A stretch of 64,000 bases of DNA from Parcubacteria group bacterium GW2011_GWA1_56_13 (GCA_001004905.1 LCRY01000002.1:1559-65558), one strand, 5' to 3'; counted from the stretch's first letter, positions 25,689-53,110 are shown. The notes: generated from the sequence alone by a model not told the origin. Program-made: numbers and translations.

Positions 25689-25722
25689 CCATTCGACGCG
25701 CGCACAGCGTTATAAAAAATAC

Positions 25723-30947: not shown

Positions 30948-30979
30948 ATATTACAGTGGAAGCATTTACTATGGTATCC

Positions 30980-33013: not shown

Positions 33014-33719
33014 TATGAACGCCGATCCCCTTGCGATCATTTCAGGCGGTACAGGCTATCTCGGTACGACCATCGTTGCGGAGCTTAAAGAGGCTGGCTG
33101 GAGCGTCGTATCACTTTCAAAAAATACGTCCGAATCAAGCGCCGAAGTGTACACCTGTGATGTCACTGATGAAAAGGACGTACAGGCCGTGATCGCAAAA
33201 ATTGTTGCGGCTCACGGTCCGATATCCGCCTGCATCCATGCGGCCTCGCCGTCTTTAGAACGTTTGCCGGTGCTCTCAATTTCTGCAGAATCTTTTGATG
33301 TCACGATGCATACGAATGTGAGGGCGGCGTTTCTCCTGGCGAAAGAGACCGTAAAGCACATGCCGGAAGGTTCCGCATATATTGGTGTAACCACACAAGC
33401 CATAGAGCCAGGCATGCTGCAGCCATCGGGAGCTTATATACCTGCGAAGTATGCACTCAGGGGTTTCTTGCGCGTATTATCGGCGGAGACGAAACAGCTA
33501 GGGATCCGCGTTTTCGCCGTTTCCCCCAGCTTTCTTCCGGGCGGTCTGAACGATGATTTGCCGCAAAATGTTCAGGATTTTCTCGCGAACAAAAGCGGGA
33601 CCGATAAACAATCAACAAGAGAAATCGCGACATTGATAAAGAAACTTTGCCTCCATGAGGGCGGGTTTCTCTCAGGCTCATCGATAGCTTTCCCATCTCT
33701 TGCGAGCAGTCCTCTCTAG
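33006..33719 (+). CDS. SDR-family oxidoreductase (3-oxoacyl-ACP reductase-like)
   Basis: Start moved to ATG 33006 (MNDMNADPLAIISGGTGYLGTTIVAEL). YIPAKYALRGF (YxxxK). Confidence 0.8.
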   Translation: MNDMNADPLAIISGGTGYLGTTIVAELKEAGWSVVSLSKNTSESSAEVYTCDVTDEKDVQAVIAKIVAAHGPISACIHAASPSLERLPVLSISAESFDVTMHTNVRAAFLLAKETVKHMPEGSAYIGVTTQAIEPGMLQPSGAYIPAKYALRGFLRVLSAETKQLGIRVFAVSPSFLPGGLNDDLPQNVQDFLANKSGTDKQSTREIATLIKKLCLHEGGFLSGSSIAFPSLASSPL

Positions 33720-33720
33720 T

Positions 33721-34506
33721 ATGGAGCTCTTCAGAACCGACAACGGCGCTTCGGTAAAGGATACAGATGTTCTCGCGGCTTTTAGACAAGTTGGTATAAA
33801 ACAAGGAGACCTTCTGTTTGTGCACTCATCACTCAAGGCGTTCGGCATGCTTGCGCAACCGGATACTCAGGCACTGATGGCGGCACTCGTTACGGCGTTT
33901 ACTGAGATTATTGGAGAGAAAGGGACCCTAATTATGCCGACTTTCACAGACAATTTTCTCAAGGGGAAACCGTACCACACAGACGATCGTTCAACGGTCG
34001 GTGCGCTGACTGAGTTCTATCGAGGGCAACCAGGCGTTTCGCGTACACTCCACCCATTCTTTTCTGTTGCAACACGAGGCCCACGGTCTGCCGAGCTTGC
34101 AGACATAAGTCACGACTCGTTCGACGCGCATTCAATATTTGGCAATGTGCATCGACTGGATGGCCTACTGGTTTTTTTTGGTGCGCGTTTTCAGTCATGT
34201 ACCTTTGTTCATTACGTCGAACAGATCCACGGTGTGCCGTACCGCTTTATGAAGACGTTCGAAGGCGTTATAGTGGACGGTGAGCGCTCGTATCGCGATT
34301 CCTATACGTATTTCGTGCGACCGCTCGACGGCAATGTTGATCCTGAATTTTCAAGGTTAGGCAAACGCCTTTTAGATTCCGGTATGATGCGCGAAGCGCC
34401 GCTCGGGCATGGCAGGGTGTTCGCCGTGCGGGCGCGAGACCTGTTTGACGAAGGCAGTAAGCTGCTCGATGCGGATATATATTCTCTTCTCAAGCAAAAA
34501 CCATGA
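33721..34506 (+). CDS. AAC(3)-family (aminoglycoside 3-N-acetyltransferase-like) N-acyltransferase
   Basis: GDLLFVHSSLKAFGML...GTLIMPTFT matches the Antibiotic_NAT/AAC(3) N-terminal signature. Confidence 0.7.
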   Translation: MELFRTDNGASVKDTDVLAAFRQVGIKQGDLLFVHSSLKAFGMLAQPDTQALMAALVTAFTEIIGEKGTLIMPTFTDNFLKGKPYHTDDRSTVGALTEFYRGQPGVSRTLHPFFSVATRGPRSAELADISHDSFDAHSIFGNVHRLDGLLVFFGARFQSCTFVHYVEQIHGVPYRFMKTFEGVIVDGERSYRDSYTYFVRPLDGNVDPEFSRLGKRLLDSGMMREAPLGHGRVFAVRARDLFDEGSKLLDADIYSLLKQKP

Positions 34507-35804
34507 CCCATTCTTCTCAGGAACACTTCACCGATGCCGGAGCGGGTGAGGCAATGCATGCACTCGCGACTGAGCTTTTTCCAATTTGCCGTAGCCTTAC
34601 GGGAGCTGGCGTTCGCGAGACACTACGCATTCTGCAGAAAATTATCCCACTCACGATACATGAAGTACCGAGTGGCACAAAAGTCTTCGATTGGACGATA
34701 CCGAAAGAATGGGTGATTCGCGATGCATACATACTTGACCCAACAGGAAACAAAATAATAGATTTTAAGAAGAGCAATCTACATGTAGTGCACTACTCGG
34801 TGCCGGTCGACACTGACATAACGCTCTCGGAGTTACAAGAACATCTCTACTCACGACCCAATCAACCGGATGCTATTCCATACATCACTTCATTTTACGA
34901 AGAACGCTGGGGCTTTTGTTTGGCACATCGAGAGCGAGAGAAGCTTGCTGAGGGTACTTACCATGTGCATATAGATAGCGACCTCAAGAATGGCTCGCTC
35001 ACGTATGGTGAACTTGTTGTGCCAGGCGAACACAAGGAGGAGATATTTATCTCGACTTATGTTTGTCATCCGTCGCTTGCCAACAATGAACTCTCCGGTC
35101 CTGTCGTCACAACATTTCTCGCGCGATGGATTATGAGTCAGCCGCGACGTTACACCTACCGTATCATTTTTATCCCCGAAACTATCGGTTCTATTATGTA
35201 TTTGTGCCACAATGTTGAAGCAATGAAAAAGCATGTTATTGCTGGATTCAATATGACCTGCGTTGGAGATGAGCGGGCCTATTCGTACCTTCCTTCACGC
35301 CTCGGTGGCACGTTACCAGATCGTGTAGTACATCTTGTGCTCTCGCACAGACATCCTGAATTTATAACGTATTCATTTTTAGATCGTGGTAGTGACGAAC
35401 GCCAATATTGCGCGCCTGGTATTGATTTGCCTGTGGTTTCTGTTATGCGAACCAAATATGGCAGATATCCAGAGTATCACTCTTCTCTCGACAATCTTTC
35501 CCTTATTACTCCAAACGGTCTTGAAGGTACCTATGGTGTGATGAAGGATTGTTTGGAATTGATCGAACGCAATCACCGATACAGTACCACAGTACTTGGT
35601 GAACCACAGATGGGTCGTCGGGGTCTTTATCCGACGCTTGGCAACCAGTATGACTTACACACTCATCGAATGATGGATGTACTTGCATATGCTGACGGGA
35701 AGCACGATCTTGTTGATCTATGCACAGTTCTTGGGATTACACCTTGGGATCTTTATCCAATTATCGAGACGTTACGAGATGCCGGTCTTATAGAGTTGTG
35801 TTAG
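34503..35804 (+). CDS. Hypothetical protein, possibly aminopeptidase-like-domain polysaccharide-biosynthesis protein (COG4310/DUF4910-like)
   Basis: 433 aa, no signature motif identified. Assignment rests only on the recalled co-occurrence of such proteins next to AAC(3)-like genes in glycan loci. Confidence 0.25.
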   Translation: MTHSSQEHFTDAGAGEAMHALATELFPICRSLTGAGVRETLRILQKIIPLTIHEVPSGTKVFDWTIPKEWVIRDAYILDPTGNKIIDFKKSNLHVVHYSVPVDTDITLSELQEHLYSRPNQPDAIPYITSFYEERWGFCLAHREREKLAEGTYHVHIDSDLKNGSLTYGELVVPGEHKEEIFISTYVCHPSLANNELSGPVVTTFLARWIMSQPRRYTYRIIFIPETIGSIMYLCHNVEAMKKHVIAGFNMTCVGDERAYSYLPSRLGGTLPDRVVHLVLSHRHPEFITYSFLDRGSDERQYCAPGIDLPVVSVMRTKYGRYPEYHSSLDNLSLITPNGLEGTYGVMKDCLELIERNHRYSTTVLGEPQMGRRGLYPTLGNQYDLHTHRMMDVLAYADGKHDLVDLCTVLGITPWDLYPIIETLRDAGLIELC

Positions 35805-35825: not shown

Positions 35826-35854
35826 TTGAAATTTGTAGATATATGTATTAGAAT
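35826..35854 (+). promoter_or_regulatory. Sigma70-like promoter, near-leaderless transcript for the pseB-like gene
   Basis: -35 TTGAAA (35826-35831), 17-nt spacer, -10 TAGAAT (35849-35854). ATG 35864 is ~9 nt downstream. Lies in the only ~60-nt gap of this part of the locus. Confidence 0.45.
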
Positions 35855-35863
35855 GCGAAGATT

Positions 35864-36880
35864 ATGGCAAGTAAAAAGCCGGCTAAGAAACAGGCGTGGA
35901 GCGCTCCAACGAGTTTTCTTAAAAGCAAGACAGTCCTCATAACCGGTGGCACGGGCACCTTCGGCCGCGCGTTTATTCAGCGCCTGTTCAAGGTTCCGGG
36001 GCTGGCAAAACTCATCGTTTTTAGCCGCGACGAACTCAAACAGAGCGAGCTCGCGGCCGACTATCGCGACGAACCGCGATTACGCTTTTTCATCGGCGAT
36101 ATCCGCGACCCGGAGCGACTCAAGCGCGCGTTGGAAGGCGTGGATATCGTAGTGCATGCGGCGGCGCTCAAGCGCGTCGAAGCGATAGAGTACAACCCGT
36201 TCGAGGCGATACAGACCAACGTCGTAGGCAGCAAGAACGTTATCGACGCAGCCATCGACCGGAAGGTCGGCAAAGTACTCCTCGTCTCCTCGGACAAGGC
36301 GGTCGAGCCCATCAATCTCTATGGCGCGACGAAGATGTCTGCGGAAAAACTCTTCGTTGCGGCAAACGTGTATGCCGGAATGGGCACCACGGCACTCAGC
36401 GTTGTGCGGTACGGCAACGTTATCGGCAGTCGAGGTTCGTTCGTAGAGCTCGTCGAGCGGCAGCGCGAAAACGGCAGTATCACGGTCACCGATCGTCACA
36501 TGACGCGGTTTTGGATACGCATCGAGCAGGTTATCGACATCGTCCTTGAGACGCTCGCTCTCATGCAGGGCGGTGAGATTTTCATCCCGAAGATGAAGAA
36601 CATGCCCATTACCGATGTCGTGAAGCTCCTCGCGCCCTCGTGCAAGGTAGAGGTTATCGGCGCGCGTCCCGGCGAGAAGCTGCATGAGACGCTGATGACC
36701 AAGTACGAGGTCAAATACGCGCGCGAATTGCCCCGCTTGTTCGTCATTACACCGCGTGCGGGCGGCGGCCCCGTGTGGCTCAAGCGCTCCCGCATGGTCC
36801 CTGACAACTTCCTCTACACGAGCGACAATAAGAAGTTTCTCCTCTCGCGGAAGGAAGCGGCGGAACTGTTCGCGAAATAG
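35864..36880 (+). CDS. pseB: UDP-N-acetylglucosamine 4,6-dehydratase (PseB/FlaA1/CapD short form)
   Basis: VLITGGTGTFGRAFIQRL. IVFSRDELKQSEL. YGATKMSAEKLFVAAN. 338 aa, characteristic of PseB-type enzymes. Confidence 0.8.
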   Translation: MASKKPAKKQAWSAPTSFLKSKTVLITGGTGTFGRAFIQRLFKVPGLAKLIVFSRDELKQSELAADYRDEPRLRFFIGDIRDPERLKRALEGVDIVVHAAALKRVEAIEYNPFEAIQTNVVGSKNVIDAAIDRKVGKVLLVSSDKAVEPINLYGATKMSAEKLFVAANVYAGMGTTALSVVRYGNVIGSRGSFVELVERQRENGSITVTDRHMTRFWIRIEQVIDIVLETLALMQGGEIFIPKMKNMPITDVVKLLAPSCKVEVIGARPGEKLHETLMTKYEVKYARELPRLFVITPRAGGGPVWLKRSRMVPDNFLYTSDNKKFLLSRKEAAELFAK

Positions 36881-36882
36881 CC

Positions 36883-37851
36883 ATGACGCGCTATCGCGTC
36901 GCGGTGATCGGCTGTGGCAAGGTGGGTGCCCTTTACGAGCGCGAGGCGGGTCGCCCGAAACCCGCGAGCCACGCCGGCGCCGCAGTACGTGATCCGCGCA
37001 CGGAGCTCGTCGCGCTCGCCGATACGTCGCCCACGGCGCTCGCGAGAGCGAAGAAGCTGTTCCCACGTGCACGCGCTTATTCTTCGGCATCGGAATGCCT
37101 GCAGACGGAGCGTCCCGACATCGCCGTCATCGCCACACCCGTTTCGGCCCGCCTCTCTCTCGTGCGGCTCTGCCTGCGCTACGGTGTCCGAGCCATCATC
37201 TGCGAGAAGCCGCTCGCATCCTCGGCGGTTGAGGCGGCGAAGATCACCCGCGCGGTCGAACGTTCCGACGCCGCGTTCGTCCTGAACTATCCGCGACGGT
37301 TCGCGCCGCTCTTCTCGCGCGTTCGCCGCGCTATAACTTCGGGTGCGCTCGGCGCGGTACAGCAGGTGACCTGTTACTACAGCAACGGGTTATACAATAA
37401 TGGCGGTCACGCCATCGATTCGCTACTTTACCTGCTCGGAGAGGACATGAAAGTGCGCTGGGCCGCCGTCAATAAAAGAGCGGCGCACCCCCCTGGGGAT
37501 CCGTGCATGGATGCGACACTCGAGACGAAAAAGGGGGCGCGGGTGATGTTGCAGAGTGTGGATCAAAAAGCGTACGGGATATTCGACATCCGCCTATTCG
37601 GCACGAAGGGCGAGCGCTCGTTCATTGACTACGGCACCACTCTCATCGAAGCGGCGCCGCGAAGATCCTTCTTTAAAGAGGTGCGCCAGCTCGACCGGGC
37701 GCGCGCGCGCGTGCACACAAGTCCGGAGGGAAACGTACTCGCGGAAACACTCAAGGCGCTCGCGAAGAAAGAGCGTCCGAACGGTGCGAAGCAGGGATTC
37801 ACGGTCCTGCGGACGCTCGATGCAATACGCCATGCGGCAAAAAAGAAATAA
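36883..37851 (+). CDS. Gfo/Idh/MocA-family NAD(P)-dependent sugar oxidoreductase
   Basis: YRVAVIGCGKVGALYE N-terminal Rossmann fold. May act like WbpB-type sugar-nucleotide 3-dehydrogenases. Confidence 0.8.
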   Translation: MTRYRVAVIGCGKVGALYEREAGRPKPASHAGAAVRDPRTELVALADTSPTALARAKKLFPRARAYSSASECLQTERPDIAVIATPVSARLSLVRLCLRYGVRAIICEKPLASSAVEAAKITRAVERSDAAFVLNYPRRFAPLFSRVRRAITSGALGAVQQVTCYYSNGLYNNGGHAIDSLLYLLGEDMKVRWAAVNKRAAHPPGDPCMDATLETKKGARVMLQSVDQKAYGIFDIRLFGTKGERSFIDYGTTLIEAAPRRSFFKEVRQLDRARARVHTSPEGNVLAETLKALAKKERPNGAKQGFTVLRTLDAIRHAAKKK

Positions 37852-37870
37852 CAACATAACCTTTCCACCC

Positions 37871-39076
37871 GTGTACCACATAGACCGTCGCGAGATAGCG
37901 GCGGTGACCGCCGTCATGAAAAAAGGCCCGTTGTCGGGGTTCGTTGGGGAGCCCGGTCCGGAATTTTTCGGTGGCTGTGCCGTGCGGCGGTTCGAGCGGG
38001 CATTCGCGCGGAAATTCGGAGTGAAGCACGCGACCTCCTTCAATTCAGCGACGACGGCGCTTCATGGCGCGATAGTGGCGCTCGGTATCGGTCCGGGAGA
38101 CGAGGTCATCGTCCCGCCGTACACGATGTCGGCGAGCGCGACTTGCGTGCTGATGAACGGCGCGGTGCCGATCTTCGCCGATATCGAGCCGGACACCTTC
38201 TGTATCGACCCGAGAGACGTCGCACGCAAGATAACCAGGCGGACCAAGGCGGTCATGATGGTGAATCTGTTCGGGCGGACGGGCGACATGAAGGCGCTCC
38301 TCTCGCTTGCGCGCAGACACCGGCTCGCGATTATCGAGGATAACGCGCAGTCAGCGGGTGCCCGCTTCCATGGCCGCTATACGGGAACGATCGGCGATAT
38401 TGGCGTTTTCAGCTTCAATGTTCATAAGCAGATACAATCCGGCGAGGGTGGGGTACTCGTTACTAACAACCGGAAGTTCGCGGACCGCGCACTGCTTGCA
38501 CGCAACCATGGCGAGAACCTCTCCGGCGAGTACTCCGGCGCCGGTCCCATCTTCGGCACGAACTACCGCATGACGGAGGTGACAGCCGCCATCGCCGAAG
38601 TGCAGCTCGAAAAGCTCGACTTTCTGAACCGGAAGCGCGTCGCACTCGCGCGTCGCCTCTCGAAGCGGCTCGCCGGCACCCCGGGGCTTACTCTGCCGCG
38701 CCCGCCCGAGGGCGGAAGCCACGTGTATTACGCTTATCCGCTGCGTTTCGATGAGAAGGCGGCCGGCCTCTCGCGGGCGGAATTCGTCAGGAAACTGCAA
38801 AAGCGCGGCTTCCCGATCGGCGCGGGATATGTAGAGCCGCTGTATCTCCTTCCTCTTTTCCAGAAGAAGCAGGCATTCAATGGGACGCACTTTCCCTTTG
38901 ACTACAACGGCAGGGCGGAGCCCGATTACCGCAAAGGCCTGTGCCCAGTGACCGAGCGCATGCATTACCGGGAATTCGTGGGGACCGACGTCTGCCAGCA
39001 TCCCTACACCGCGGCGCACATCGACGCCTTCGCCGTCGCGGTGAAGGAAGTTCTCGCGCAAGCGAAGAAGCGATGA
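37871..39076 (+). CDS. DegT/DnrJ/EryC1/StrS-family sugar aminotransferase
   Basis: Start moved to GTG 37871 (..YHIDRREIAAVTAVMKKGPLSGFVGEP). PLP lysine in FSFNVHKQIQSGEGGVLVTNN. Confidence 0.8.
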   Translation: MYHIDRREIAAVTAVMKKGPLSGFVGEPGPEFFGGCAVRRFERAFARKFGVKHATSFNSATTALHGAIVALGIGPGDEVIVPPYTMSASATCVLMNGAVPIFADIEPDTFCIDPRDVARKITRRTKAVMMVNLFGRTGDMKALLSLARRHRLAIIEDNAQSAGARFHGRYTGTIGDIGVFSFNVHKQIQSGEGGVLVTNNRKFADRALLARNHGENLSGEYSGAGPIFGTNYRMTEVTAAIAEVQLEKLDFLNRKRVALARRLSKRLAGTPGLTLPRPPEGGSHVYYAYPLRFDEKAAGLSRAEFVRKLQKRGFPIGAGYVEPLYLLPLFQKKQAFNGTHFPFDYNGRAEPDYRKGLCPVTERMHYREFVGTDVCQHPYTAAHIDAFAVAVKEVLAQAKKR

Positions 39077-40050
39077 AAGCGCTTTTCGCCGCACAGGACC
39101 CGGGCGGAGCGAACGCGATTCTGCCGGTAGCTGCCGCGCTCATGGCGCACGGCGATACGGTCGTAGCGCGGGTCGAGGGCGCCGCCCAACACATGTTTGC
39201 GGCGCGCGGCTTTCCGCTCGGCGCGATCAAGCCCGACGTGGTCGTCCTCGGCACGAGCGGAGGGGAGAGCGTCGAGAAGCGGGTTACCGATGAGTTTCGC
39301 CATGCGGTGCCGATTGTTGCGGTCTTGGATTTCTGGTCCAATTATTGGCAGCGCTTTTCCACGCTCGGTGCCAAGGATTTCGCGTACCTGCCGGACCGTA
39401 TCTGCGTGATGGACGAAGTCGCGCGGGACGAAATGCTCGCGGAGGGCTTCCCGCCGGAGCGCATCGCGGTGACCGGCAATCCGCATTTCGACCATTTTGC
39501 GGATGGCATCACGCGCGACCGCGAAGACCCAAAGCGCGTCCTGTTCGTATCGCAGCCAATCCGAGCCGATGCTCGCCTTCCGGGTTTCGCGCCGGCGGCG
39601 GCCGACGAATTCAGTTTGCTTGCGGACGTAACGGCGGCCCTGCCTCCCGGCCATACGCTCTCCGTCCGGCTCCATCCGCGCGACGAGCGGAGCAAATACG
39701 ACGCATATCTTGATGGGCGGGTAACGCTCGCGCCAGAAAAAACGCTCGAAGAAGCTCTTTCGGCAAGCGGCCTCATCATCGGTCCCGCGACGCCCGTCCT
39801 CATGCAGGCCGCCGCGGCGGGGAAAAAGGCGCTCTGCTATGAACCCGGGCTCTCGGCCCCGGACACGCTCGTCAGCAACCGCGTCGGCGTGACGACACGC
39901 GTTTCCTTGCCGGAGGAACTCAGGAGCGCGCTCGCGGCGTATGTGCGGCGAGACTGGCCATACGCTACGCGACCGTTGCGGGACGTATGGCCGCTCGGCG
40001 CGACCGAACGCGTTGTCGCCGTTGTCCGTTCGCTTGCGGAAAGAAAATGA
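39073..40050 (+). CDS. GT-B-fold protein, possible PseG-like UDP-sugar hydrolase or NeuC-like enzyme
   Basis: Start ATG 39073, ATGA overlap. MKALFAAQDPGGANAILPVAAAL N-terminus typical of MurG/PseG-like GT-B proteins. Function uncertain. Confidence 0.35.
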   Translation: MKALFAAQDPGGANAILPVAAALMAHGDTVVARVEGAAQHMFAARGFPLGAIKPDVVVLGTSGGESVEKRVTDEFRHAVPIVAVLDFWSNYWQRFSTLGAKDFAYLPDRICVMDEVARDEMLAEGFPPERIAVTGNPHFDHFADGITRDREDPKRVLFVSQPIRADARLPGFAPAAADEFSLLADVTAALPPGHTLSVRLHPRDERSKYDAYLDGRVTLAPEKTLEEALSASGLIIGPATPVLMQAAAAGKKALCYEPGLSAPDTLVSNRVGVTTRVSLPEELRSALAAYVRRDWPYATRPLRDVWPLGATERVVAVVRSLAERK

Positions 40051-40063
40051 TGCAAAATAGGCC

Positions 40064-41212
40064 ATGAAGATGATTCCTTATTCAACGCAAGACATCAATG
40101 AGGCCGATATACGGGCGGTCGCGGCTGTCCTGCGTTCGGGATGGCTCACGCAGGGCCCCGCACTTGAGCGATTCGAGAAAGCTATCGCAAAGAAAGTCGG
40201 CGCGAAATTCGCCGCCTCCTTCAACTCCGGCACTGCCGCCCTCCATGCCGCCTACTTCGCCGCTGGGGTGGGGAAAGGAGATGAGGTCATCGTGCCCGCG
40301 CTCACGTTCGCCGCGACCGCGAACGCCGCACTCTATCTCGGCGCGAAGCCGGTATTTGCCGACTCGGATATGCACACCGGCACTATGAGCGTATCTGACG
40401 CGCGTAGGAAGATAACCAAGCGGACGAAAGCGATCGTGCCGGTGGATTACGCCGGTTGCCCGGCCGCTCTTTCGGAATTCCACACCCTCGCCAAGAAGCG
40501 CCGCCTCGTTTTCATAGAGGATGCCGCGCAGGCGCTCGGCGCGACATATCGCGGCCGTCCGGTCGGCACGCAGGCGGATATGACAATGTTCAGTTTTCAT
40601 CCGGTGAAGTCCATCACGACCGGCGAGGGAGGCGTCATTGTTACCGATAACGAGGACTACGCTCGTGCCATGCGCCTCTTCCGTAGCCACGGCATCAGCA
40701 AAGATGCGACGACATTTGCGCGCAAAAATCACGGCGCATGGTATCAGGAGATGCAGGCGCTCGGCTTCAACTATCGCATGCCGGAAATGTCCGCCGCGCT
40801 CGGAGAAAGCCAGCTGAAACGGCTCGATACGTTCATAACGAAGCGGCGCGCGGCCGCAAAGCGGTACGACAGATTGTTCAAGAATGTTCCCGGTCTCATC
40901 CTGCCGCCTCCAGAACGTATCCACGAAAAGTCGGCGTGGCATCTCTACCCGGTGCGGCTTGCGCCCCGTATCGCGCACAAACGCGACGAAGTTTTCGCGA
41001 AACTGCGCGAAGCGGGCATCGGCGTGCAGGTTCACCACGTACCCGTACATCTCCATGTTTTTTACGAAAAACTCGGATACAAGAAAGGTCTTTGTCCGAA
41101 TGCCGAAGCATTTGTTGCTTCCGAGATTTCCATTCCATTATTTCCAAACATCACGCTAAAACAACAGCAGTTTATTGCTAATACACTGAAGCGCATCCTC
41201 GCACCGACATGA
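40064..41212 (+). CDS. pseC: PseC-like UDP-4-amino-4,6-dideoxy-sugar aminotransferase (DegT family)
   Basis: MIPYSTQDINEADIRAVAAVLRSGWLTQGP and FSFHPVKSITTGEGGVIVTDNEDYARAMRLFRSHG closely follow PseC landmarks (WLTQG; SFH.IKPITT.EGG.VVTND; LFRSHG). Confidence 0.8.
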   Translation: MKMIPYSTQDINEADIRAVAAVLRSGWLTQGPALERFEKAIAKKVGAKFAASFNSGTAALHAAYFAAGVGKGDEVIVPALTFAATANAALYLGAKPVFADSDMHTGTMSVSDARRKITKRTKAIVPVDYAGCPAALSEFHTLAKKRRLVFIEDAAQALGATYRGRPVGTQADMTMFSFHPVKSITTGEGGVIVTDNEDYARAMRLFRSHGISKDATTFARKNHGAWYQEMQALGFNYRMPEMSAALGESQLKRLDTFITKRRAAAKRYDRLFKNVPGLILPPPERIHEKSAWHLYPVRLAPRIAHKRDEVFAKLREAGIGVQVHHVPVHLHVFYEKLGYKKGLCPNAEAFVASEISIPLFPNITLKQQQFIANTLKRILAPT

Positions 41213-42540
41213 CCAACTCTCTTAGGAACAGGACGGGCCAGAAACTATGGCGAAAGGCAAAGAAACTGATACCCGGAGGGAACCAGCTCCTTTCCAAGCG
41301 TGCGGAAATGTTCCTGCCGGAGGAATGGCCCGCGTATTATTCAAAGGCAAAAGGATGCGAGGTGTGGGATTTGGATGGGAAGAAATACATCGACATGTCC
41401 ATTATGGGCGTCGGTAGCTGCATTCTCGGCTATGCTGACCCGGAAGTGAACGCGGCGGTAAAGAAAGCCGTTGATAACGGTTCCATGTCTACCTTAAATG
41501 CGCCGGAAGAGGTGGAACTCGCCGAACTCTTATGCAAGGTCCATCCGTGGGCGCAGATGGTCCGATACGCCCGTACCGGCGGGGAGGCGATGGCCATCGC
41601 GGAGCGCATCGCGCGCGCCCACACTGGCAAAGATGTCATCGCGTTTTGCGGCTATCACGGCTGGCACGACTGGTACCTTGCGACGAACCTTGCGCGCAAA
41701 GACGGGCTCAAAGAATACCTGCTCGCGGGGCTTCTGCCCGCCGGGGTGCCGAAAGGCCTACGCGGGACCATCCTGCCGTTCCACTACAACAATATAGAAG
41801 ATCTCGAAGCTATCGTTCGGAAGACGGGCAAGCATCTGGCCGCCATCGTAATGGAGCCGATACATGGCGTCGAACCGCGGAATAATTTCCTGAAAAAAGT
41901 CCGCCGCATCGCCGATAAAACCGGTGCCGTCCTGATTTTTGATGAGATAACCGTCGGATGGAAGCTCACGTACGGCGGCATGCATTTGAAATACAAGGTC
42001 AATCCGGACATCGCCGTTTTTAGCAAGGCGATGAGTAATGGCTACCCGATGGCAGCCATCATCGGAACGCGCAAGGTAATGGAGGCGGCGCAGAGTTCTT
42101 TTATATCCAGTACCTACTGGACCGAACGCATCGGGCCCGTTGCCGCGCTCGCGGCGCTTAAGAAAATGAAGCGGATAAACGCCCCGAAACGCATAGAAAA
42201 AGCGGGCAGGGCAGTACGCGCCGGCTGGACGAATCTCGCGCGCAAACACGGCCTCCTCATCACTCTCGGTGGAGTTATCCCTATCAGCAGTTTTACGTTC
42301 CAATACGGCAAGGACAGCCAGGCGCTCAAGACGCTCTTCGTGCAGGAAATGTTGGACCGAGGATTCCTCGCGACAAATATGTTCTTCGCTTCTTGCGCAC
42401 ACACAGATGCGCGTATCAGGAACTATCTCCGTGCCGCGGATGAGGCGTTCGGCGTCATCGCCGAAGCGATAAAAAAGGGTGATGTGCGCAAACGGCTTCG
42501 CGGTCCCGAAGCACACACGGGTTTTGAACGCCTGAACTGA
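41209..42540 (+). CDS. Class III aminotransferase (glutamate-1-semialdehyde aminomutase-like)
   Basis: PLP lysine AVFSKAMSNGYPMAAIIG. IFDEITVGWKLTYGG. 443 aa. Confidence 0.8.
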   Translation: MTNSLRNRTGQKLWRKAKKLIPGGNQLLSKRAEMFLPEEWPAYYSKAKGCEVWDLDGKKYIDMSIMGVGSCILGYADPEVNAAVKKAVDNGSMSTLNAPEEVELAELLCKVHPWAQMVRYARTGGEAMAIAERIARAHTGKDVIAFCGYHGWHDWYLATNLARKDGLKEYLLAGLLPAGVPKGLRGTILPFHYNNIEDLEAIVRKTGKHLAAIVMEPIHGVEPRNNFLKKVRRIADKTGAVLIFDEITVGWKLTYGGMHLKYKVNPDIAVFSKAMSNGYPMAAIIGTRKVMEAAQSSFISSTYWTERIGPVAALAALKKMKRINAPKRIEKAGRAVRAGWTNLARKHGLLITLGGVIPISSFTFQYGKDSQALKTLFVQEMLDRGFLATNMFFASCAHTDARIRNYLRAADEAFGVIAEAIKKGDVRKRLRGPEAHTGFERLN

Positions 42541-42542
42541 CT

Positions 42543-43319
42543 ATGGCAAAGGTCGTTGCAATCATCCAAGCACGTATCGGTTCCACCCGCCTGCCGGGGA
42601 AGGTGTTAAAACCCATTTTGAGAGAGCCGATGCTTGCGCGCATGCTTGAGCGCGTGAAGCGCGCAAAAGAAATTGAACGTGTCATCGTGGCGACATCCGA
42701 AAAATCGAGAGACGATGCCGTCGCCGAGCTCGCCAAGCGTGCCGGTGTCAGTGTCTTCCGCGGAAGCGAAGATGACGTGCTTGACCGCATGTATCGGGCG
42801 GCGAAGGATGCGAGCGCCGACGTGATCGTCGGCCTCACGGGCGACTGCCCGCTCCACGACCCGGGAGTTATTGATGAGGCCGTGCGGCATTTTATCGCCG
42901 CGAACAATCCCTTCGCCTATGCAGGCACCCCGGCGAATTATCCGGAAGGTCTTGATACCGACATATGCACCTTCACCGCATTTGCGGAAGCGGCGGAACA
43001 GGCGCGGCTCCATTCCGAGCGCGAGCATATCGCCCAGTACTTCAAGAATCATCCGGAACGCTTCCATGGATTACCATGGACAGTGGGCGAGGGCGACTAT
43101 TCATCAATGCATTGGTCGGTTGACACTGCGCAGGACTTTGAATTCGTGACGAAAGTATTCGAGAAACTCCACCCCGCCAATCCGAGTTTCAATAAAGACG
43201 ATGTTCTTGCGCTACTCGCGCGACAGCCGGAACTTCTGGAGATAAACAAAGGCGGCACCGGATACGAAGGACTCGCGAAGTCTTTGAACATGGACGAAGA
43301 GATGAAAAAAACGCCATGA
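42543..43319 (+). CDS. CMP-nonulosonic-acid synthetase-family cytidylyltransferase (SpsF/PseF-like)
   Basis: VVAIIQARIGSTRLPGKVLKPI is the SpsF-type CTP_transf_3 signature. Confidence 0.8.
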   Translation: MAKVVAIIQARIGSTRLPGKVLKPILREPMLARMLERVKRAKEIERVIVATSEKSRDDAVAELAKRAGVSVFRGSEDDVLDRMYRAAKDASADVIVGLTGDCPLHDPGVIDEAVRHFIAANNPFAYAGTPANYPEGLDTDICTFTAFAEAAEQARLHSEREHIAQYFKNHPERFHGLPWTVGEGDYSSMHWSVDTAQDFEFVTKVFEKLHPANPSFNKDDVLALLARQPELLEINKGGTGYEGLAKSLNMDEEMKKTP

Positions 43320-44236
43320 CGGACAAAAAAACAAAACTTGTACTTGGTACCGTACAGCTCGGCATGAAATACGGCCTCAATAACACGCACGGCCAGCCGA
43401 CGCGCGAGGAGTCGTTCTCCATCCTGGACGCGGCGCTTGCCGTCGGCATTGATACGTTTGATACCGCCTATGCCTATGGCGGGGCGGAAGACGTGCTCGG
43501 CTCATGGATACGCGAGCGCTCGCTGGCAGGCAAAGTTCGCATCATTTCCAAGATGAGGCCGCACGCGCTCAACGACTATCCGGATGGCACAAGAGCGTCC
43601 GACGTAGTCATGAGGGAATTAGAAAAATCACTCAAGCGCCTCAATTTGGAATCCCTGGACGGCTATTTGTTCCATTCGCCCCACTACATATATCTGCGCC
43701 ACATGGTGGAAGGCATGCGAGAGGCACAAGCGGCCGGCCTCGTGAAGAACATCGGCGTCTCCATTTATGACGAGCCGGAGGCCCTGCAGGCCGCCGAGCT
43801 TGGCGTTGATTACGTGCAGGTGCCCTACAACGCGTTTGACCAGCGCTTGGACGCGACTGATTTTTTTGAGCTGGCGAAGAAGAATAACGTAACCGTATTT
43901 GCCCGCAGTCCGTTCCTGCAGGGCCTCTTGGTCATGCCGCCCGAACGAGTGCCGGAGCACCTCTCGTACGTTCGCCCGTACCTGCTCCAGTTCGCGGAAA
44001 TCGCACAGCGGCACAATCTGTCGCCCGCGTGGGCTGCTCTTCTGTTCGTAAAAGAGCATTGCCGCGCTCAACAGGTCGTTTTTGGCGTCGAGACGCTTCC
44101 CCAGCTCGAAGAAGACAAGGCCATCATGAACGAGCTCGCATCCGGTGCGAAATGGGCGTCCGAGATAGAGACCGCCTTCAGACAGATGAATCGCGGCGCC
44201 ATTAATCCGAGCTTATGGAGCAGGATAAAGAAATGA
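43316..44236 (+). CDS. Aldo/keto reductase
   Basis: LVLGTVQLGMKYGLNN. AKR TIM barrel. Confidence 0.85.
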   Translation: MTDKKTKLVLGTVQLGMKYGLNNTHGQPTREESFSILDAALAVGIDTFDTAYAYGGAEDVLGSWIRERSLAGKVRIISKMRPHALNDYPDGTRASDVVMRELEKSLKRLNLESLDGYLFHSPHYIYLRHMVEGMREAQAAGLVKNIGVSIYDEPEALQAAELGVDYVQVPYNAFDQRLDATDFFELAKKNNVTVFARSPFLQGLLVMPPERVPEHLSYVRPYLLQFAEIAQRHNLSPAWAALLFVKEHCRAQQVVFGVETLPQLEEDKAIMNELASGAKWASEIETAFRQMNRGAINPSLWSRIKK

Positions 44237-44847
44237 GCCCGGACGCCATCATTGTCTTTCCGGCAGGCATTGTCCCGCTCAACGACGTGAAAACCGAGTG
44301 GCGTAGCACCACATATGACGAGAATGACGCATTCGGCACACTCGGCGGCCACGATCGTGTGAGAGCTGCCGCACTTCTGGCACGGCGATATCCAACTGCG
44401 GCGGTTGTCACGACCTCTCACACGCTCGGGCGTCCTGCCCCAACGCTGGCTGACGTATACGAAAACGAGCTCATCGGACTCGGTGTAGCGCGTGAGCGCA
44501 TACTGAAAGAGGAGAGTTCTAACACAACGCGGGCAGGCCTCGTAGCCTCTCTCGAACTTGCAAGACGAAAGAGGTGGAAGCGCCTCTTGTTCGTTTCAAG
44601 CGGTTTCCATGTCCCACGCATCCGCGCGTTTCTGGAGCAAGAACACAACGACATTGACGTGAAATGCGCCGCTTCCGAACCGTTACTCTCGGCGGCAGAC
44701 CCCTCTTTTGCCGCGCAGTTCGCCGCGGTGCAGGACACACCCGCTTACAAAAAACGCCTGGTCTCCGAGGAGCGCGGCATTCAGGCGATCAAATCCGGGG
44801 ACTATCGTTCGGCGTCGGCAGAGGACAAACTGGAGCGCGAGGCGTAA
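44233..44847 (+). CDS. DUF218/YdcF-like protein
   Basis: Start ATG 44233 (ATGA overlap). IIVFPAGI. LLFVSSGFHVPR. Confidence 0.6.
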   Translation: MSPDAIIVFPAGIVPLNDVKTEWRSTTYDENDAFGTLGGHDRVRAAALLARRYPTAAVVTTSHTLGRPAPTLADVYENELIGLGVARERILKEESSNTTRAGLVASLELARRKRWKRLLFVSSGFHVPRIRAFLEQEHNDIDVKCAASEPLLSAADPSFAAQFAAVQDTPAYKKRLVSEERGIQAIKSGDYRSASAEDKLEREA

Positions 44848-44858
44848 CATCTTTGCAT

Positions 44859-46079
44859 ATGCGGATAGGAATGAAAGAGGTAGGCCCGGGGAACCCAACC
44901 TATGTCATTTTTGAAGTTGCGAGCACGCACGGCAATGACTGGGAAACGGCAAAAGCGTACATCGCGCAAGCGGCAGACGCCGGCGCCAACGCGGTGAAGT
45001 TCCAGCTTTTCACGGCCGATACGCTCATTAACCCGCTTACGCCTGGGCTCAAGGGCACCTACGACTACTTTAAAACTGCCGAGACGCCGCGTGAATGGTT
45101 CCCTAAGTTGAAAGTGCTCTGTGATGAGAAGGGAATTGACCTCTTATGCACGCCCTTCGATATCGACTCCGCGCGATTCCTCGACGAGGTCGGCGTCCCG
45201 GCGGTCAAAATCGCTTCCGGCGAATTGACGAATCTGCAACTGCTCGAGAGTGTCGCCACTTTTGGCAAGCCGATTATTGTCTCAACCGGTATGGCGACGA
45301 TGCAGGAGGTCGAGCGAGCCGTGCACATTCTCCGCACGAACGGCGCAAAAGAAATCGCGCTTCTCCAGTGCGTCTCGGTCTATCCGACGAGTTTTGAAGA
45401 CGCGAACGTTTCGGCGATGAACACGCTCGGAGACGCCCTCGATACCATTATCGGTTATTCAGATAACGGTTCTGTAGGCGCATTGGTGCCATTGATGGCT
45501 GTCGCGATGGGTGCATCCATCATCGAGAAGCATGTGACTTCTAAGAAGGAACGCGGCTCGCTTGATGATGTGTTCTCGATGTCGGTTGAAGAGTTTGCGC
45601 AGATGGTGATGAAGATTCGCGCTATTGACGCTCGTGCAGATAAAAAAGAAGTTCTTAAAGAGCTTCGTGAAGAATTCGGTGCGGACTTTGACAAAGCGCT
45701 TGGCGATGGTATCAAGCGTCCGGCACCACATGGTACGCTCGTTACCCACCCGGGTGTTGAAGGCGAGTTCCGTATGAAGGAGGCCGATGAACGGCAATGG
45801 GCTCGCCGCGGAGTGTATCTCAATCAAGCGGTCGCGAAGGGTACGACAATAACAAAAGAAATGCTCACCCTGCTCCGGCCCGATATCGGCATCTCGAGCG
45901 TCGACTATGAACGTGTCATCGGCACGGTTGCCGGAGAGGACTTACCGCCGATGCTGCCGCTCAAGATGCAGGGAGAAGCGGTGGTCCTCTTCCATAAAGC
46001 GGACATCGCGCCGACCTATGCCGACCCGAGCGAAGCGGGCTTCGTGAAGATGCTCGGAGAGACAGCGCTCTTCGCCTAG
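44859..46079 (+). CDS. N-acetylneuraminate/pseudaminate-type nonulosonic acid synthase (NeuB/PseI/SpsE family) with C-terminal SAF domain
   Basis: Start ATG 44859 or 44871. NPTYVIFEVASTHGNDWETAKAYIAQAADAGANAVKFQLF. PAVKIASGELTNLQLLESVATFGKPIIVSTGMATMQEVERAV. Confidence 0.85.
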   Translation: MRIGMKEVGPGNPTYVIFEVASTHGNDWETAKAYIAQAADAGANAVKFQLFTADTLINPLTPGLKGTYDYFKTAETPREWFPKLKVLCDEKGIDLLCTPFDIDSARFLDEVGVPAVKIASGELTNLQLLESVATFGKPIIVSTGMATMQEVERAVHILRTNGAKEIALLQCVSVYPTSFEDANVSAMNTLGDALDTIIGYSDNGSVGALVPLMAVAMGASIIEKHVTSKKERGSLDDVFSMSVEEFAQMVMKIRAIDARADKKEVLKELREEFGADFDKALGDGIKRPAPHGTLVTHPGVEGEFRMKEADERQWARRGVYLNQAVAKGTTITKEMLTLLRPDIGISSVDYERVIGTVAGEDLPPMLPLKMQGEAVVLFHKADIAPTYADPSEAGFVKMLGETALFA

Positions 46080-46083
46080 TGCT

Positions 46084-46977
46084 ATGCATACTCCCGAACA
46101 TTCCGGTACGCGAGTGGTGACGGTTGACGGTTCAGACGTCATTGAGTGTACGGGGTGTGGTTTTAAACATGTGATGCCGCTTCCGACGCCTGAGGTACTT
46201 AAGACGTTTTATGAAGATGAATTTTATCAAGAAGAGCGAAAGGACTATTTTAAAGAAGTCGAGGAGGACAAAGACTGGTGGATGCTCACCTACAATCACT
46301 ATTATGATCTGCTTGAAAAGCATACGAAGGGCAGAAAACTACTTGATATAGGGTCAGGCCCAGGGCTGTTTTTGGAATGTGGTAATGCACGCGGGTGGCA
46401 GACACTCGGCTTTGAGCCGTCACCGCGAGCGGGTGAGTACGCGCGAAGTCTCGGTTGCGAAGTGGTGACGGACTTTTTTACCGCTGAACAGGCAAAGCGC
46501 TACGGCCCGTTCGACGCGATTACGCTCAACTTCGTTCTCGAGCATGTACCGAACCCGACAGAACTTATTGCGCAGGCGCGAAGCCTGCTCGCGCCGGGCG
46601 GCGTGCTCTTGGTCGTCTCACCGAACGATTTCAACCCGCTCCAGAAACTTCTGGTCGAGCATCATGGTTATACATCGTGGTGGGTTGTGCCGAAGCACCA
46701 CCTCAATTATTTCGATATCGAGTCGGCTTCCCGCCTTCTCGTATCCCGCGATATGGCGGTGATCGAGCGGGAAGCGACGTATCCCCTGGAGCTCTTTTTG
46801 CTCTCCGGCCGCAATTATGTGGAGCATCCAGAGCTTGGCAGAGTCTGCCACAGTGAACGCAAGGCGTTCGAGTCCGCTTTGTATCGCCATAAGAGCGACT
46901 TAATTCAGAAAATGTTTATTGATTGGGCGAAGCAAGGTATCGGGCGTGAAGTGGTCTCTATTAGCAAAAAAGGATGA
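46084..46977 (+). CDS. SAM-dependent methyltransferase with N-terminal zinc ribbon
   Basis: CTGCGFKHVMP. LLDIGSGPGLFLECG. Confidence 0.75.
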   Translation: MHTPEHSGTRVVTVDGSDVIECTGCGFKHVMPLPTPEVLKTFYEDEFYQEERKDYFKEVEEDKDWWMLTYNHYYDLLEKHTKGRKLLDIGSGPGLFLECGNARGWQTLGFEPSPRAGEYARSLGCEVVTDFFTAEQAKRYGPFDAITLNFVLEHVPNPTELIAQARSLLAPGGVLLVVSPNDFNPLQKLLVEHHGYTSWWVVPKHHLNYFDIESASRLLVSRDMAVIEREATYPLELFLLSGRNYVEHPELGRVCHSERKAFESALYRHKSDLIQKMFIDWAKQGIGREVVSISKKG

Positions 46978-48164
46978 GAAAGAATAAATCTACAATGGAT
47001 TCAAAAAAATGGGTCGTGTGTCTTGGAGGAAGTGATTCAAAGATACCTATCATACAAGCTGTGCAAGACCGCGGTATGCGATGTGCAGTAGTGGATCATG
47101 ATTCAGACAGTCCGGCTAAGCGATACGCCGATTTATTTTTAAACATAAGTATTTTTGATTCGGTAGCCATCATAGATGCGTTGAAGCAAGCTAATATACT
47201 TCATGCAACCGCCTTTGTATTTGCGTACACGTCGTTACAAGAAGGTCAATTATCAGCAAGCCGATTGACTAAGGGACTTAATATTCCTATTAACTTAAAA
47301 GAATCATGGTTGGAGAATTCTTGGAATAAAATAGCATTCAAAAGATTTTGTAGTGCAACGGGCATCACGACTCCAGCGTTTACAGAATCTCTCCAAGGTG
47401 GTGGCACACACATGTTTTTGGAAAGATATGGTAAAGCGGTGTGCAAGCCAATAGAGGGAGGTGTCGGATCAAAGTCTGTTTTTTTTGTTGATATGTTGAA
47501 CGATGAGCAGGTTATTGATAATTCGTGTTTTCTAGAGCAATATATAGACGGTGATCTTTATTCGTATAACGGCATTGCAATAAAAGAGGAAGTGCCGTTT
47601 TCTCTAGTATTGCGTAAATATACACGCACAGACGGTAAAAATATCGCTGGATTTTCTTCGCGCGTGGACAGAAAGCTAGGAGCGCGTATCATTAATCAAT
47701 GTAAAGTCGCCGCTTTATCTATGCATCTACGTGATACGTTTTTCCATTTTGATATTCTCGTACGAGATGGTGTCAGCTATTTCATTGATTTTGGTCTTCT
47801 TTTGGATTGCCGAGTTAACGAGTTGTTGCTATATGGCGGTTTTAATGCGTATGGGTATATTTTGGATGAAGTATTAAACCTTCCTACCATAGAACACGTA
47901 AGATATACTAAAAACGAAACTGAAACAGCCATAGCTTTCGTGTATCCGATTCAAGAAGGTCGTCTGCGCAGTCTACCAACTTCTCTCTCCACCGTACTTC
48001 CTGGGTGCTCTGCATACATCTGGAAAAAAGAAGGAGACTTTGTCAAAGTTGAAGGAACAGTGGAAGATGAAATTGGGTATGTTGTGGGCCGTGATGTCGA
48101 TTGGTCTAAGGTAAAAAATGTGGCGGGCATGCTCGAAGAAGAGATTATTATTGAACCGGTATGA
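46974..48164 (+). CDS. ATP-grasp-fold ligase
   Basis: VCKPIEGGVGSKSVFFV ATP-grasp glycine-rich loop. Rossmann-like N-terminus VVCLGGSDSKIPIIQA. In a low-GC island. Confidence 0.55.
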   Translation: MRKNKSTMDSKKWVVCLGGSDSKIPIIQAVQDRGMRCAVVDHDSDSPAKRYADLFLNISIFDSVAIIDALKQANILHATAFVFAYTSLQEGQLSASRLTKGLNIPINLKESWLENSWNKIAFKRFCSATGITTPAFTESLQGGGTHMFLERYGKAVCKPIEGGVGSKSVFFVDMLNDEQVIDNSCFLEQYIDGDLYSYNGIAIKEEVPFSLVLRKYTRTDGKNIAGFSSRVDRKLGARIINQCKVAALSMHLRDTFFHFDILVRDGVSYFIDFGLLLDCRVNELLLYGGFNAYGYILDEVLNLPTIEHVRYTKNETETAIAFVYPIQEGRLRSLPTSLSTVLPGCSAYIWKKEGDFVKVEGTVEDEIGYVVGRDVDWSKVKNVAGMLEEEIIIEPV

Positions 48165-49390: not shown

Positions 49391-49400
49391 ACATAAATCC

Positions 49401-50567: not shown

Positions 50568-50579
50568 TATAACAAACCT

Positions 50580-52357: not shown

Positions 52358-52361
52358 ATAT

Positions 52362-53105: not shown

Positions 53106-53110
53106 CATAT

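Follow-up and report, generated by a model that had tools for sequence, protein, structure and literature searches.

A predicted pseudaminic acid-type nonulosonic acid module with a divergent synthase and a recurrent three-gene insert in a surface-glycan locus of Candidatus Kaiserbacteria

We analysed a 64,000-nucleotide (nt) stretch of Parcubacteria group bacterium GW2011_GWA1_56_13 (GCA_001004905.1, LCRY01000002.1:1559-65558), called the window below. The organism is an uncultured Candidatus Kaiserbacteria (Parcubacteria group, Patescibacteria or Candidate Phyla Radiation, CPR) from a groundwater metagenome, and public copies of the locus are present in GCA_003531405.1 (DQGO01000013.1) and ENA ERZ28564264 (scaffold_245). 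Positions 35864-46079 hold ten contiguous genes, all on the plus strand, neighbours overlapping by up to 32 nt or standing at most 13 nt apart (Table 1). Judged from their sequences, these ten genes are probably the biosynthetic core of a pathway to a nonulosonic acid (NulO) activated with cytidine monophosphate (CMP). A first-pass annotation made from the window alone had described a NulO module of pseudaminic acid (Pse) or legionaminic acid (Leg) type here, which the family assignments bear out. Each of the ten gene families that it named was recovered with Pfam and NCBIfam, except that of the GT-B fold protein of 325 amino acids (aa), which had no family match there.

The module is part of a longer array. 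Between approximately 6.7 and 59.5 kb every gene is on the plus strand except one (17579-18424, minus), and the products include glycosyltransferases, methyltransferases, PMT_2 and GtrA proteins, an ABC exporter and a Wzy_C-TPR protein. The array is bordered on one side by genes for MurD-like Mur ligases and on the other by MurB and SecA. The NulO module is embedded in a single surface-glycan locus of about 50 kb with one direction of transcription. The GC fraction is 0.587 in the ten-gene module, 0.435 in the block 3' of it (46084-50567) and 0.471 in an insert on its 5' side (30944-35804). An Rfam scan of the window gave nothing at gathering thresholds.

The product of the first gene reached 397 bits over the full length of TIGR03589, against a cut-off of 407.75, while the next model, FnlA, gave 212 bits and LegB only 50 (cut-off 475). 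The fifth gene, which had been called PseC-like, is a bona fide PseC equivalog by its model score (Table 1), and the LegC model gave it 242 bits against a cut-off of 420. Schiff-base lysine motifs are retained in both DegT proteins of the module and in its class III aminotransferase. Going by the families of the two enzymes, the PseB-like dehydratase and PseC would convert uridine diphosphate (UDP)-N-acetylglucosamine (GlcNAc) to UDP-4-amino-4,6-dideoxy-beta-L-AltNAc. On these assignments, this is Pse-type entry chemistry in a genuine NulO module.

The last gene of the module encodes a synthase of the NeuB family with a SAF domain, as the first-pass annotation had proposed, and both domains score above their Pfam gathering thresholds. 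The protein fell below the curated models for NeuB_NnaB (267.8 bits, cut-off 399.65) and PseI (TIGR03586, 248.8 bits, cut-off 340.25), whereas a true PseI (locus L044) scored 509. Among solved structures it is closest to NeuB, SpsE and PseI. Identity as a synthase of 3-deoxy-D-manno-octulosonic acid 8-phosphate (KDO8P) was considered and rejected on the PF03102 and SAF match and these same solved relatives; the clustering with KDO8P synthases named in the first-pass annotation as a refutation was not seen. The synthase belongs, by sequence, to a distinct and sharply separated clade that we call long NeuB. The clade comprises 86 clusters, each with a score of 391 bits or more and an identity to the window protein of 51% or higher, the next-best match being at 244 bits. 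Its members are about 400-416 aa in length (some longer by fusion, a few truncated) versus 335-350 aa for canonical enzymes, with about 39 aa inserted before the SAF domain and about 30 aa added at the C terminus. Fusions of long NeuB with DUF218 or with CTP_transf_3 occur, and CTP_transf_3-DUF218 fusions also exist.

The long clade also differs at the active site. All 86 members carry G-Y-S-D-N-G (at residues 199-205 of the window synthase), as against S-D-H in all 34 canonical relatives among the matches listed. We take the histidines of S-D-H and of a second motif, E-K-H, to be H215 and H236 of Neisseria meningitidis NeuB, the former also by a constant offset in alignment numbering. The metal of NeuB is held by two histidine side chains (PMC12531865). 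When the two ligand positions were examined in the window synthase, the first histidine was found replaced by asparagine at residue 203 and the second, in E-K-H, kept, together with counterparts of E25, K53, Q55, Y186, E234 and the SAF arginine. Asparagine in place of the first ligand parallels the Cys-to-Asn switch of metal-independent KDO8P synthases. A large phylogeny of NeuB (PMC8208679) describes neither the long clade nor the His-to-Asn change.

Between PseC and the synthase lie a class III aminotransferase, a cytidylyltransferase, an aldo/keto reductase and a DUF218 protein. The cytidylyltransferase had been labelled SpsF/PseF-like. It is SpsF-type by its CTP_transf_3 match and is a candidate CMP-NulO synthetase; the PseF half of the label falls away, the PseF model TIGR03584 giving 35.9 bits against a cut-off of 205.7. 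Its best solved relative is the cytidylyltransferase 6OEW (134 bits). SpsF of Bacillus subtilis has been linked genetically to the CMP-legionaminic acid step (PMC7439481). The other three proteins were confirmed as the first pass had them (Table 1). Solved relatives of the class III aminotransferase include glutamate-1-semialdehyde aminomutase (GSAM), an aminopentol aminotransferase and aminoglycoside C-6' aminotransferases. The predicted structure of the DUF218 protein (predicted local distance difference test, pLDDT, 91) matched only Escherichia coli YdcF and generic nucleotide-binding USP/HUP folds, which is compatible with a role in handling nucleotides and not diagnostic of one, and which speaks neither for nor against DUF218 standing in for PseG. 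The ENA assembly and the window both carry the full 210-aa protein. In the NCBI copy (L001), which otherwise agrees with the window, the letters 'nn' at 14553-14554 replace 167 bases (window 44616-44782), leaving a 155-aa product with no Pfam match. We considered the resulting 165-bp length difference between the window and the NCBI copy as an indel and rejected this, since it is a two-N gap in the NCBI assembly.

This combination of genes has precedents. In the group I flagellin glycosylation islands of Aeromonas the order is pseB, pseC, an aldo/keto reductase, pseF, a class III aminotransferase, pseG and pseI (PMC7874193), the O-antigen clusters of Legionella pneumophila Sg6/12 have PseG and a GSA-like aminotransferase together with a cytidylyltransferase and an aryl-alcohol dehydrogenase (PMC3694923), and Pse clusters of Vibrionaceae and Moritella contain a fusion of SpsF with an aldo/keto reductase (PMC7371886). 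The class III aminotransferase, SpsF-type and aldo/keto reductase combination is already known from Pse islands (PMC7874193, PMC3694923, PMC7371886).

Three further genes, for a Gfo/Idh/MocA oxidoreductase, a DegT-family aminotransferase (DegT#1) and the GT-B protein, stand between pseB and pseC, and we refer to them as the triad. The Gfo protein gave weak matches of 37-69 bits to inositol 2-dehydrogenase, PDB 3Q2K and UDP-GlcNAc 3-dehydrogenase, below curated cut-offs (NF040723, 37 bits against 450). The entry 3Q2K (41 bits), among its top three solved relatives, is recorded only as 'oxidoreductase' and is presumably WlbA. DegT#1 scored 225 bits with the PseC model and 177 with LegC (cut-off 420), far below the cut-off in both cases, and among solved structures it is closest to perosamine synthetase (205 bits), followed by inosose aminotransferases (190) and KdnA (182), with WbpE at 122.

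For the GT-B protein, 41 homologues were aligned and an AlphaFold2 model was built and compared with known folds by Foldseek. The model (pLDDT 96) is nearest to UDP-GlcNAc 2-epimerases, including hydrolysing ones, and the top match is a hydrolysing 2-epimerase. Weak Pfam Epimerase_2 matches were found in 32 of the 41 family members. A direct search of PDB sequences with the GT-B protein gave no match. In a profile search against solved structures the 2-epimerase matches were marginal (E = 0.01) and serve for motif alignment only; in that alignment the invariant VTGNP..D and R-x-H-P motifs line up with those of solved 2-epimerases. The family is large, with 1,626 clusters (50% identity) at E <= 1e-30. 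A tblastn search against plasmids returned a single weak match, on a megaplasmid of Sinorhizobium fredii with unrelated neighbours. By modelled fold and motifs, the protein, earlier described as a 'hydrolase/epimerase candidate', resembles 2-epimerases of the NeuC/LegG/WbpI type and is unlike the GT28-like hydrolase PseG (TIGR03590).

Species-representative genomes were scanned with the GT-B profile, and the window proteins were then searched by tblastn at the 80 loci obtained. These loci belong to Patescibacteria, the cultured Chitinimonas, Sulfuricella, Gemmatimonadota, Chloroflexota, Verrucomicrobiota, Planctomycetota, Acidobacteriota, Methanoregula and a Woesearchaeote. DegT#1-type genes were present at 73 of the 80 (within 1.5 kb of the GT-B gene in 70), Gfo at 69 (60), NeuB at 62 (16), PseB at 52 (1), PseC at 38 (9) and the SpsF-type gene at 35 (20), and an aldo/keto reductase at only 4. 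The loci without NeuB are mostly truncated contigs. Most triad loci outside the CPR also have canonical PseG, PseH and PseI. At Sulfuricella denitrificans, for instance, the order is PseB, PseC, a cytidylyltransferase, a Pse-associated methylase, a PseG-PseH fusion (PseG 324 bits), PseI (509 bits), a small open reading frame, a second cytidylyltransferase, Gfo, GT-B, DegT, WbuX and HisH. At the patescibacterial triad loci PseG and PseH were undetected by tblastn in nearly all cases; the exceptions are a weak PseH-like match well 3' of the triad (L019) and, in a Giovannonibacteria locus (L093), a second NeuB with a PseH-like GNAT protein. Some patescibacterial operons are compact, such as L020 with a PseB-like gene, NeuB, Gfo, DegT#1, GT-B and SpsF, where PseC, PseG and PseH were undetected within the contig. 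At 16 loci a GNAT gene (at least 49% identical to the Chitinimonas one) lies directly 3' of the triad; the window has no homologue of it.

The triad recurs beside NeuB or Pse genes across many phyla and is therefore an add-on unit and not a one-off. As read from these comparisons, it is a conserved accessory unit inserted between pseB and pseC. By analogy, its enzyme logic of dehydrogenase, aminotransferase and 2-epimerase or nucleoside diphosphate (NDP) release, with a GNAT in most relatives, would be that of a diamino-sugar branch of either the Leg or the WbpB/E/D/I type. The extra 'WbpB/WbpE-like' pair of the first-pass annotation was reasonable in that sense; the pair proved to be part of a widespread triad, and the similarity to WbpE is weak (122 bits, against 205 for perosamine synthetase).

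PseH, LegH, Hexapep, PF00583 and PF13302 were absent from the Pfam matches of every called gene in the 64-kb window, the PseH model TIGR03585 matched none of the module or upstream proteins, and tblastn of the window with the PseG, PseH and GNAT proteins of relatives found nothing. Thus the lack of PseH and LegH that had been noted for the module holds across the whole window. The 'non-acetylated' product that had been suggested as a possibility does not follow, since a FemAB/GNAT-like gene, an AAC(3)-like transferase with an FkbH and acyl carrier protein (ACP) set, and three ATP-grasp ligases flank the module. Homologues of the FemAB-like gene stand directly 5' of PseB in the closest relatives (L009-L012), and the FemAB-like protein is a candidate replacement for PseH. 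The AAC(3)-like and FkbH genes belong to the low-GC insert, which is not found in those relatives. Its FkbH passed the model cut-off (TIGR01686, 303 bits, cut-off 147), and further matches were to AAC(3)-IV (82 bits) and ACPS (56 bits). Such a set could, as in other FkbH systems, build a glyceryl- or lactyl-ACP donor. The genes at 30944-34506 have the look of a cassette that N-acylates an amino sugar from glyceryl/lactyl-ACP. Judged from adjacency, on which the choice of acyltransferase also depends, non-canonical N-acylation is more likely than a free amine.

The genes 3' of the synthase were compared with the neighbourhoods of five distant long-NeuB members. All five share PseB-like, PseC-like, long NeuB and SpsF genes, most add DUF218, a methyltransferase resembling the first of the window (MT1), ATP-grasp ligases and a short-chain dehydrogenase/reductase (SDR), and individual ones add a class III aminotransferase, a formyltransferase, a PIG-L deacetylase or a transaldolase. 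GT-B and PseG were undetected in all five. The methyltransferase and ATP-grasp block at 46084-50567 is syntenic with two of these loci, L091 and L094 (23-38% identity, same order class). In the place of the window genes at 50580-54319, these two loci (L091 18259-19670; L094 17066-19697) carry genes for an SDR, a TAL_FSA transaldolase and an ATP-grasp protein, which suggests that this segment is a conserved route to an unusual carboxylate ligated onto the sugar. The L094 order is PseB, PseC, NeuB, SpsF+DUF218, MT1, MT2, ATP-grasp, ATP-grasp, SDR, transaldolase, ATP-grasp. This parallels window 35864-54319, and the boundary at 46079, where the first-pass annotation had ended the module, therefore cuts a conserved system in half; by synteny with the long-NeuB clade the functional unit continues to about 54319. 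From the same comparison, the triad, the class III aminotransferase and the aldo/keto reductase are variable inserts in a conserved long-NeuB system. Four of the five long-NeuB loci also have a GH57 glycoside hydrolase gene at their end or close to it (L090 from 19603; L091 from 21036; L093 13696-15726; L094 from 19707), and the window has none at that position.

The 59-bp gap 5' of the PseB-like gene contains a sigma-70-like match (TTGAAA-17-TAGAAT) that had been described as the only clear internal promoter of the locus. The site is present exactly and is the best match within 28-47 kb. Statistically, however, it is indistinguishable from chance matches, as 12 matches were observed in the region against a shuffle expectation of 11.9; other 10/12 matches fall inside genes. 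The -10 element ends 9 nt 5' of the pseB ATG, and a transcript from it would be near-leaderless. A working promoter here is plausible from the sequence. Gene starts between 28744 and 55102 showed no recognisable Shine-Dalgarno sequence, and 4-nt overlaps (ATGA) are frequent.

Elsewhere in the window two proteins may act on the product. A 719-aa Wzy_C and TPR protein (57310-59469) weakly matches a model for a putative O-glycosylation ligase, and delivery of the glycan of the locus could fall to this protein as ligase or oligosaccharyltransferase. The C-terminal part of a 640-aa protein (25669-27591) weakly matches models for a BFO_1060-family glycosyltransferase and a 'surface carbohydrate biosynthesis protein', its Pfam matches being a faint Epimerase_2 and a weak Glyphos_transf, and it is a candidate transferase for the CMP-NulO. 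Just 3' of secA, at about 63.5-64.0 kb, the ENA copy annotates a Y1 transposase (PF01797) on the opposite strand, where the NCBI copy has an unannotated plus-strand open reading frame (L005 20377-21042 versus L006 20411-21058).

Table 1. Features of the nonulosonic acid module and its flanks, in window coordinates
Feature	Position	Strand	Evidence
PLP_IMCC1989-like enzyme	28744-29934	+	Pfam
FemAB/Acetyltransf_6 GNAT-fold protein	29931-30947	+	Pfam; weak TIGR04422 and TIGR04421 matches in the 28744-30947 pair
Low-GC insert: phosphopantetheinyl transferase, FkbH, 76-aa ACP, MaoC dehydratase, ketoreductase, AAC(3)-like N-acyltransferase, DUF4910/DUF2172	30944-35804	+	
Sigma-70-like promoter match	35826-35854	+	10/12 consensus matches
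PseB-like UDP-GlcNAc 4,6-dehydratase, 338 aa	35864-36880	+	PF02719 296 bits
Gfo/Idh/MocA oxidoreductase, 322 aa, triad member 1	36883-37851	+	PF01408 55 bits
DegT-family aminotransferase #1, 418 aa, triad member 2	37820-39076	+	PF01041 306 bits; Schiff-base Lys motif NVHKQIQSGEGG retained
GT-B fold protein related to UDP-GlcNAc 2-epimerases, 325 aa, triad member 3	39073-40050	+	predicted structure and motifs
PseC, 382 aa	40064-41212	+	TIGR03588 479.4 bits, cut-off 423.5 passed, full length
Class III aminotransferase, GSA-aminomutase-like, 443 aa	41209-42540	+	PF00202 154 bits; NF004856 265 bits, cut-off 486
SpsF-type cytidylyltransferase (CTP_transf_3), 258 aa	42543-43319	+	PF02348 110 bits
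Aldo/keto reductase, 306 aa	43316-44236	+	PF00248 139 bits
DUF218/YdcF-like protein, 210 aa	44215-44847	+	DUF218 53 bits
Long NeuB nonulosonic acid synthase with SAF domain, 406 aa	44859-46079	+	PF03102 248.6 bits; PF08666 (SAF) 28.2 bits
Methyltransferase	46084-46977	+	Pfam/NCBIfam
ATP-grasp protein	46974-48164	+	Pfam/NCBIfam
ATP-grasp protein	48161-49390	+	Pfam/NCBIfam
Methyltransferase	49401-50567	+	Pfam/NCBIfam
Split transketolase	50580-51386, 51383-52357	+	family matches
FabG-like SDR	52362-53105	+	40-41% identity to L091/L094 SDR
ATP-grasp protein	53111-54319	+	39-40% identity to L091/L094 ATP-grasp

These assignments are consistent with a pathway that would run as follows. After the PseB-like and PseC steps, the 4-amino group would be N-acylated by neighbouring non-canonical enzymes and not by PseH, the candidates being the FemAB/GNAT-like protein, the ATP-grasp ligases and the AAC(3)-like transferase, the last supplied by the glyceryl/lactyl system of FkbH and ACP. 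The nucleotide may then be removed by the 2-epimerase-like protein, the only GT-B candidate, with DUF218 as a second and weaker candidate. Long NeuB would condense the hexose with phosphoenolpyruvate, the SpsF-type enzyme would form the CMP-sugar, and its tailoring would fall to the methyltransferases and the ATP-grasp ligases that extend to about 54319. The predicted product is a Pse-like NulO that is heavily N-acylated and methylated and may have an amino function that is extra or alternative; a bare, non-acylated sugar is not expected. The first-pass annotation had proposed that the product could be 'unusually aminated or non-acetylated'; both still have a place among the readings weighed below, and neither is the best supported.

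Several observations weigh against this pathway. The synthase and the cytidylyltransferase are below every curated equivalog cut-off, and the asparagine at the first metal-ligand position bears on both the activity and the metal use predicted for the synthase. Four of the long-NeuB loci (L089-L091 and L094) have neither GT-B nor PseG, and the GT-B protein may accordingly not be the nucleotidase of this pathway. The coexistence of the triad with PseG in genomes outside the CPR argues that it has a function of its own. Characterised sugar-acting Gfo/Idh/MocA enzymes are mostly C3-specific, which would favour a separate 2,3-diamino sugar.

Such a sugar would be a UDP-2,3-diamino-2,3-dideoxy-hexose of the ManNAc3N type, made by the triad from UDP-GlcNAc in the manner of WbpB/WbpE/WbpD/WbpI; it would enter the same glycan as a second building block, with the GNAT or the WbuX amidotransferase joining the route in relatives, and the triad would have no part in NulO synthesis. 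We consider this possible although rather unlikely. The WbpB/E/D/I logic of the triad, the 2-epimerase motifs retained by GT-B, 3Q2K among the closest solved relatives of Gfo, the 80-bit match of the Sulfuricella Gfo homologue to an archaeal UDP-GlcNAc 3-dehydrogenase, and the partners of the triad (the GNAT at 16 loci, or WbuX and HisH in Sulfuricella) are all consistent with it, as are the occurrence of the triad alongside complete canonical Pse sets and of core long-NeuB systems without the triad. An independent pathway would not, however, be expected to lie nearly always beside NeuB on contigs that are long enough (62 of 80, most others truncated), and a second SpsF-type cytidylyltransferase, within 1.5 kb of GT-B at 20 loci, has no role in a UDP-sugar route. 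Furthermore, DegT#1 has closer relatives than WbpE in perosamine synthetase, inosose aminotransferases and KdnA, and every Gfo match is far below the curated cut-offs. That tight linkage to NeuB and a second cytidylyltransferase would instead fit a second NulO branch, in which the triad acts with an acyltransferase, NeuB and the SpsF-type enzyme to make a triamino sugar by a further amination of Pse or its precursor, or opens a Leg-like route by dehydrogenation, followed by the aminotransferase, N-acylation and hydrolysing 2-epimerisation by GT-B. The compact L020 operon, in which PseC, PseG and PseH were undetected, the hydrolysing 2-epimerase as the top Foldseek match of GT-B, and the two NeuB genes of some loci all agree with such a branch. 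We nonetheless hold it to be doubtful. We found no triamino NulO in the searchable literature, and most loci outside the CPR have only one nearby NeuB, a true PseI. By the established carbon mapping, hexose C3 becomes C6 of the NulO, the carbon that supplies the ring oxygen. A 3-aminated NulO is chemically awkward because the 3-amino group would occupy this carbon, and amination at hexose C3 would block closure of the NulO pyranose ring.

A NulO with a free, non-acylated amino group appears very improbable to us. In its favour, the window lacks PseH, LegH, Hexapep and PF00583 matches, and NulOs with free amines have been reported in Ca. Kuenenia (bioRxiv 10.64898/2026.04.20.719630). However, two other genes of N-acyltransferase type and three amide-forming ATP-grasp ligases stand in the same co-directional array, the FemAB-like gene abuts pseB in the closest relatives, and the Kuenenia route uses a deacetylase and a formyltransferase, neither of which is in the window. 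A more far-reaching proposal is that the long NeuB (S-D-N) clade, with SpsF-type, DUF218, methyltransferase and ATP-grasp genes and without PseG and PseH, represents an undescribed route to a new class of NulO. The active site of the synthase would then be altered and possibly metal-independent, as in the analogous Asn-type KDO8P synthases, ATP-grasp or FemAB-type enzymes would carry out N-acylation, and the Gfo-DegT-GT-B triad would be a widespread NulO-modifying unit that adds an extra amino function here. That all of this should hold together we regard as unlikely. The acylated, methylated Pse-like NulO set out above remains the reading that we prefer.

Nonulosonic acids are key surface determinants, and prediction of glycan chemistry from genomes draws on the known bacterial pathways for neuraminic acid (Neu), Leg and Pse, with a few epimers. 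CPR bacteria have a minimal metabolism and yet appear to invest here in an elaborate NulO system. In the searchable literature we found no paper that joins nonulosonic acids with the Candidate Phyla Radiation. A large NeuB subfamily has asparagine for a metal-ligand histidine and travels with DUF218 and ATP-grasp genes instead of PseG and PseH, and a unit of dehydrogenase, aminotransferase and 2-epimerase-like protein recurs beside Pse genes in at least ten phyla, including the cultured Chitinimonas. The long-NeuB clade, the triad and the occurrence in CPR mark gaps in the rules by which NulO structure is predicted from sequence, the chemistry here being predicted from the genes.

Compared with known systems, the module is closest in its entry steps to the Pse pathway of Campylobacter and Helicobacter (PseB, PseC, PseH, PseG, PseI, PseF), with which it shares a PseB-like enzyme, an equivalog-level PseC, a NeuB-family synthase with SAF domain and a cytidylyltransferase. 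It differs from that pathway in having no PseH and no PseG, in a synthase and a cytidylyltransferase below the PseI and PseF cut-offs, in the asparagine, insertion and extension of the synthase, and in the additional triad, class III aminotransferase, aldo/keto reductase and DUF218 genes. The clusters of Aeromonas and Legionella and the nab clusters of Vibrionaceae and Moritella, compared by their published descriptions, likewise have a class III aminotransferase, an SpsF-type enzyme and an aldo/keto reductase in a Pse-type cluster; unlike the window they keep PseG and often PseH, have synthases of canonical length and have no Gfo-DegT-GT-B triad. With the legionaminic pathway (LegB/C/H/G/I/F, and Sps of B. 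subtilis) the module shares a GT-B protein of 2-epimerase fold, the fold of the LegG/NeuC type that serves NDP release, and the SpsF-type enzyme, and Leg clusters also have an oxidoreductase (PtmF), but the window proteins fall below the LegB, LegC and NeuB_NnaB cut-offs (50, 242/177 and 268 bits, respectively). The dehydratase and the second aminotransferase of the window are both of Pse type, and L-altro rather than D-gluco stereochemistry is therefore predicted. The triad shares with WbpB/WbpE/WbpD/WbpI (WlbA/WlbC), which lead to UDP-2,3-diacetamido-2,3-dideoxy-mannuronic acid, the sequence of chemical steps, from a Gfo/Idh/MocA dehydrogenase through a DegT aminotransferase and an N-acetyltransferase (the GNAT of relatives) to a 2-epimerase fold. 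It differs in that the window has no 6-dehydrogenase of the WbpA type, the similarity is weak, and the triad nearly always has NeuB, and often a cytidylyltransferase, linked to it. As far as sequence comparison reaches, the module is built from known enzyme families, and its unusual parts are the synthase subfamily and the recurrent three-gene add-on.

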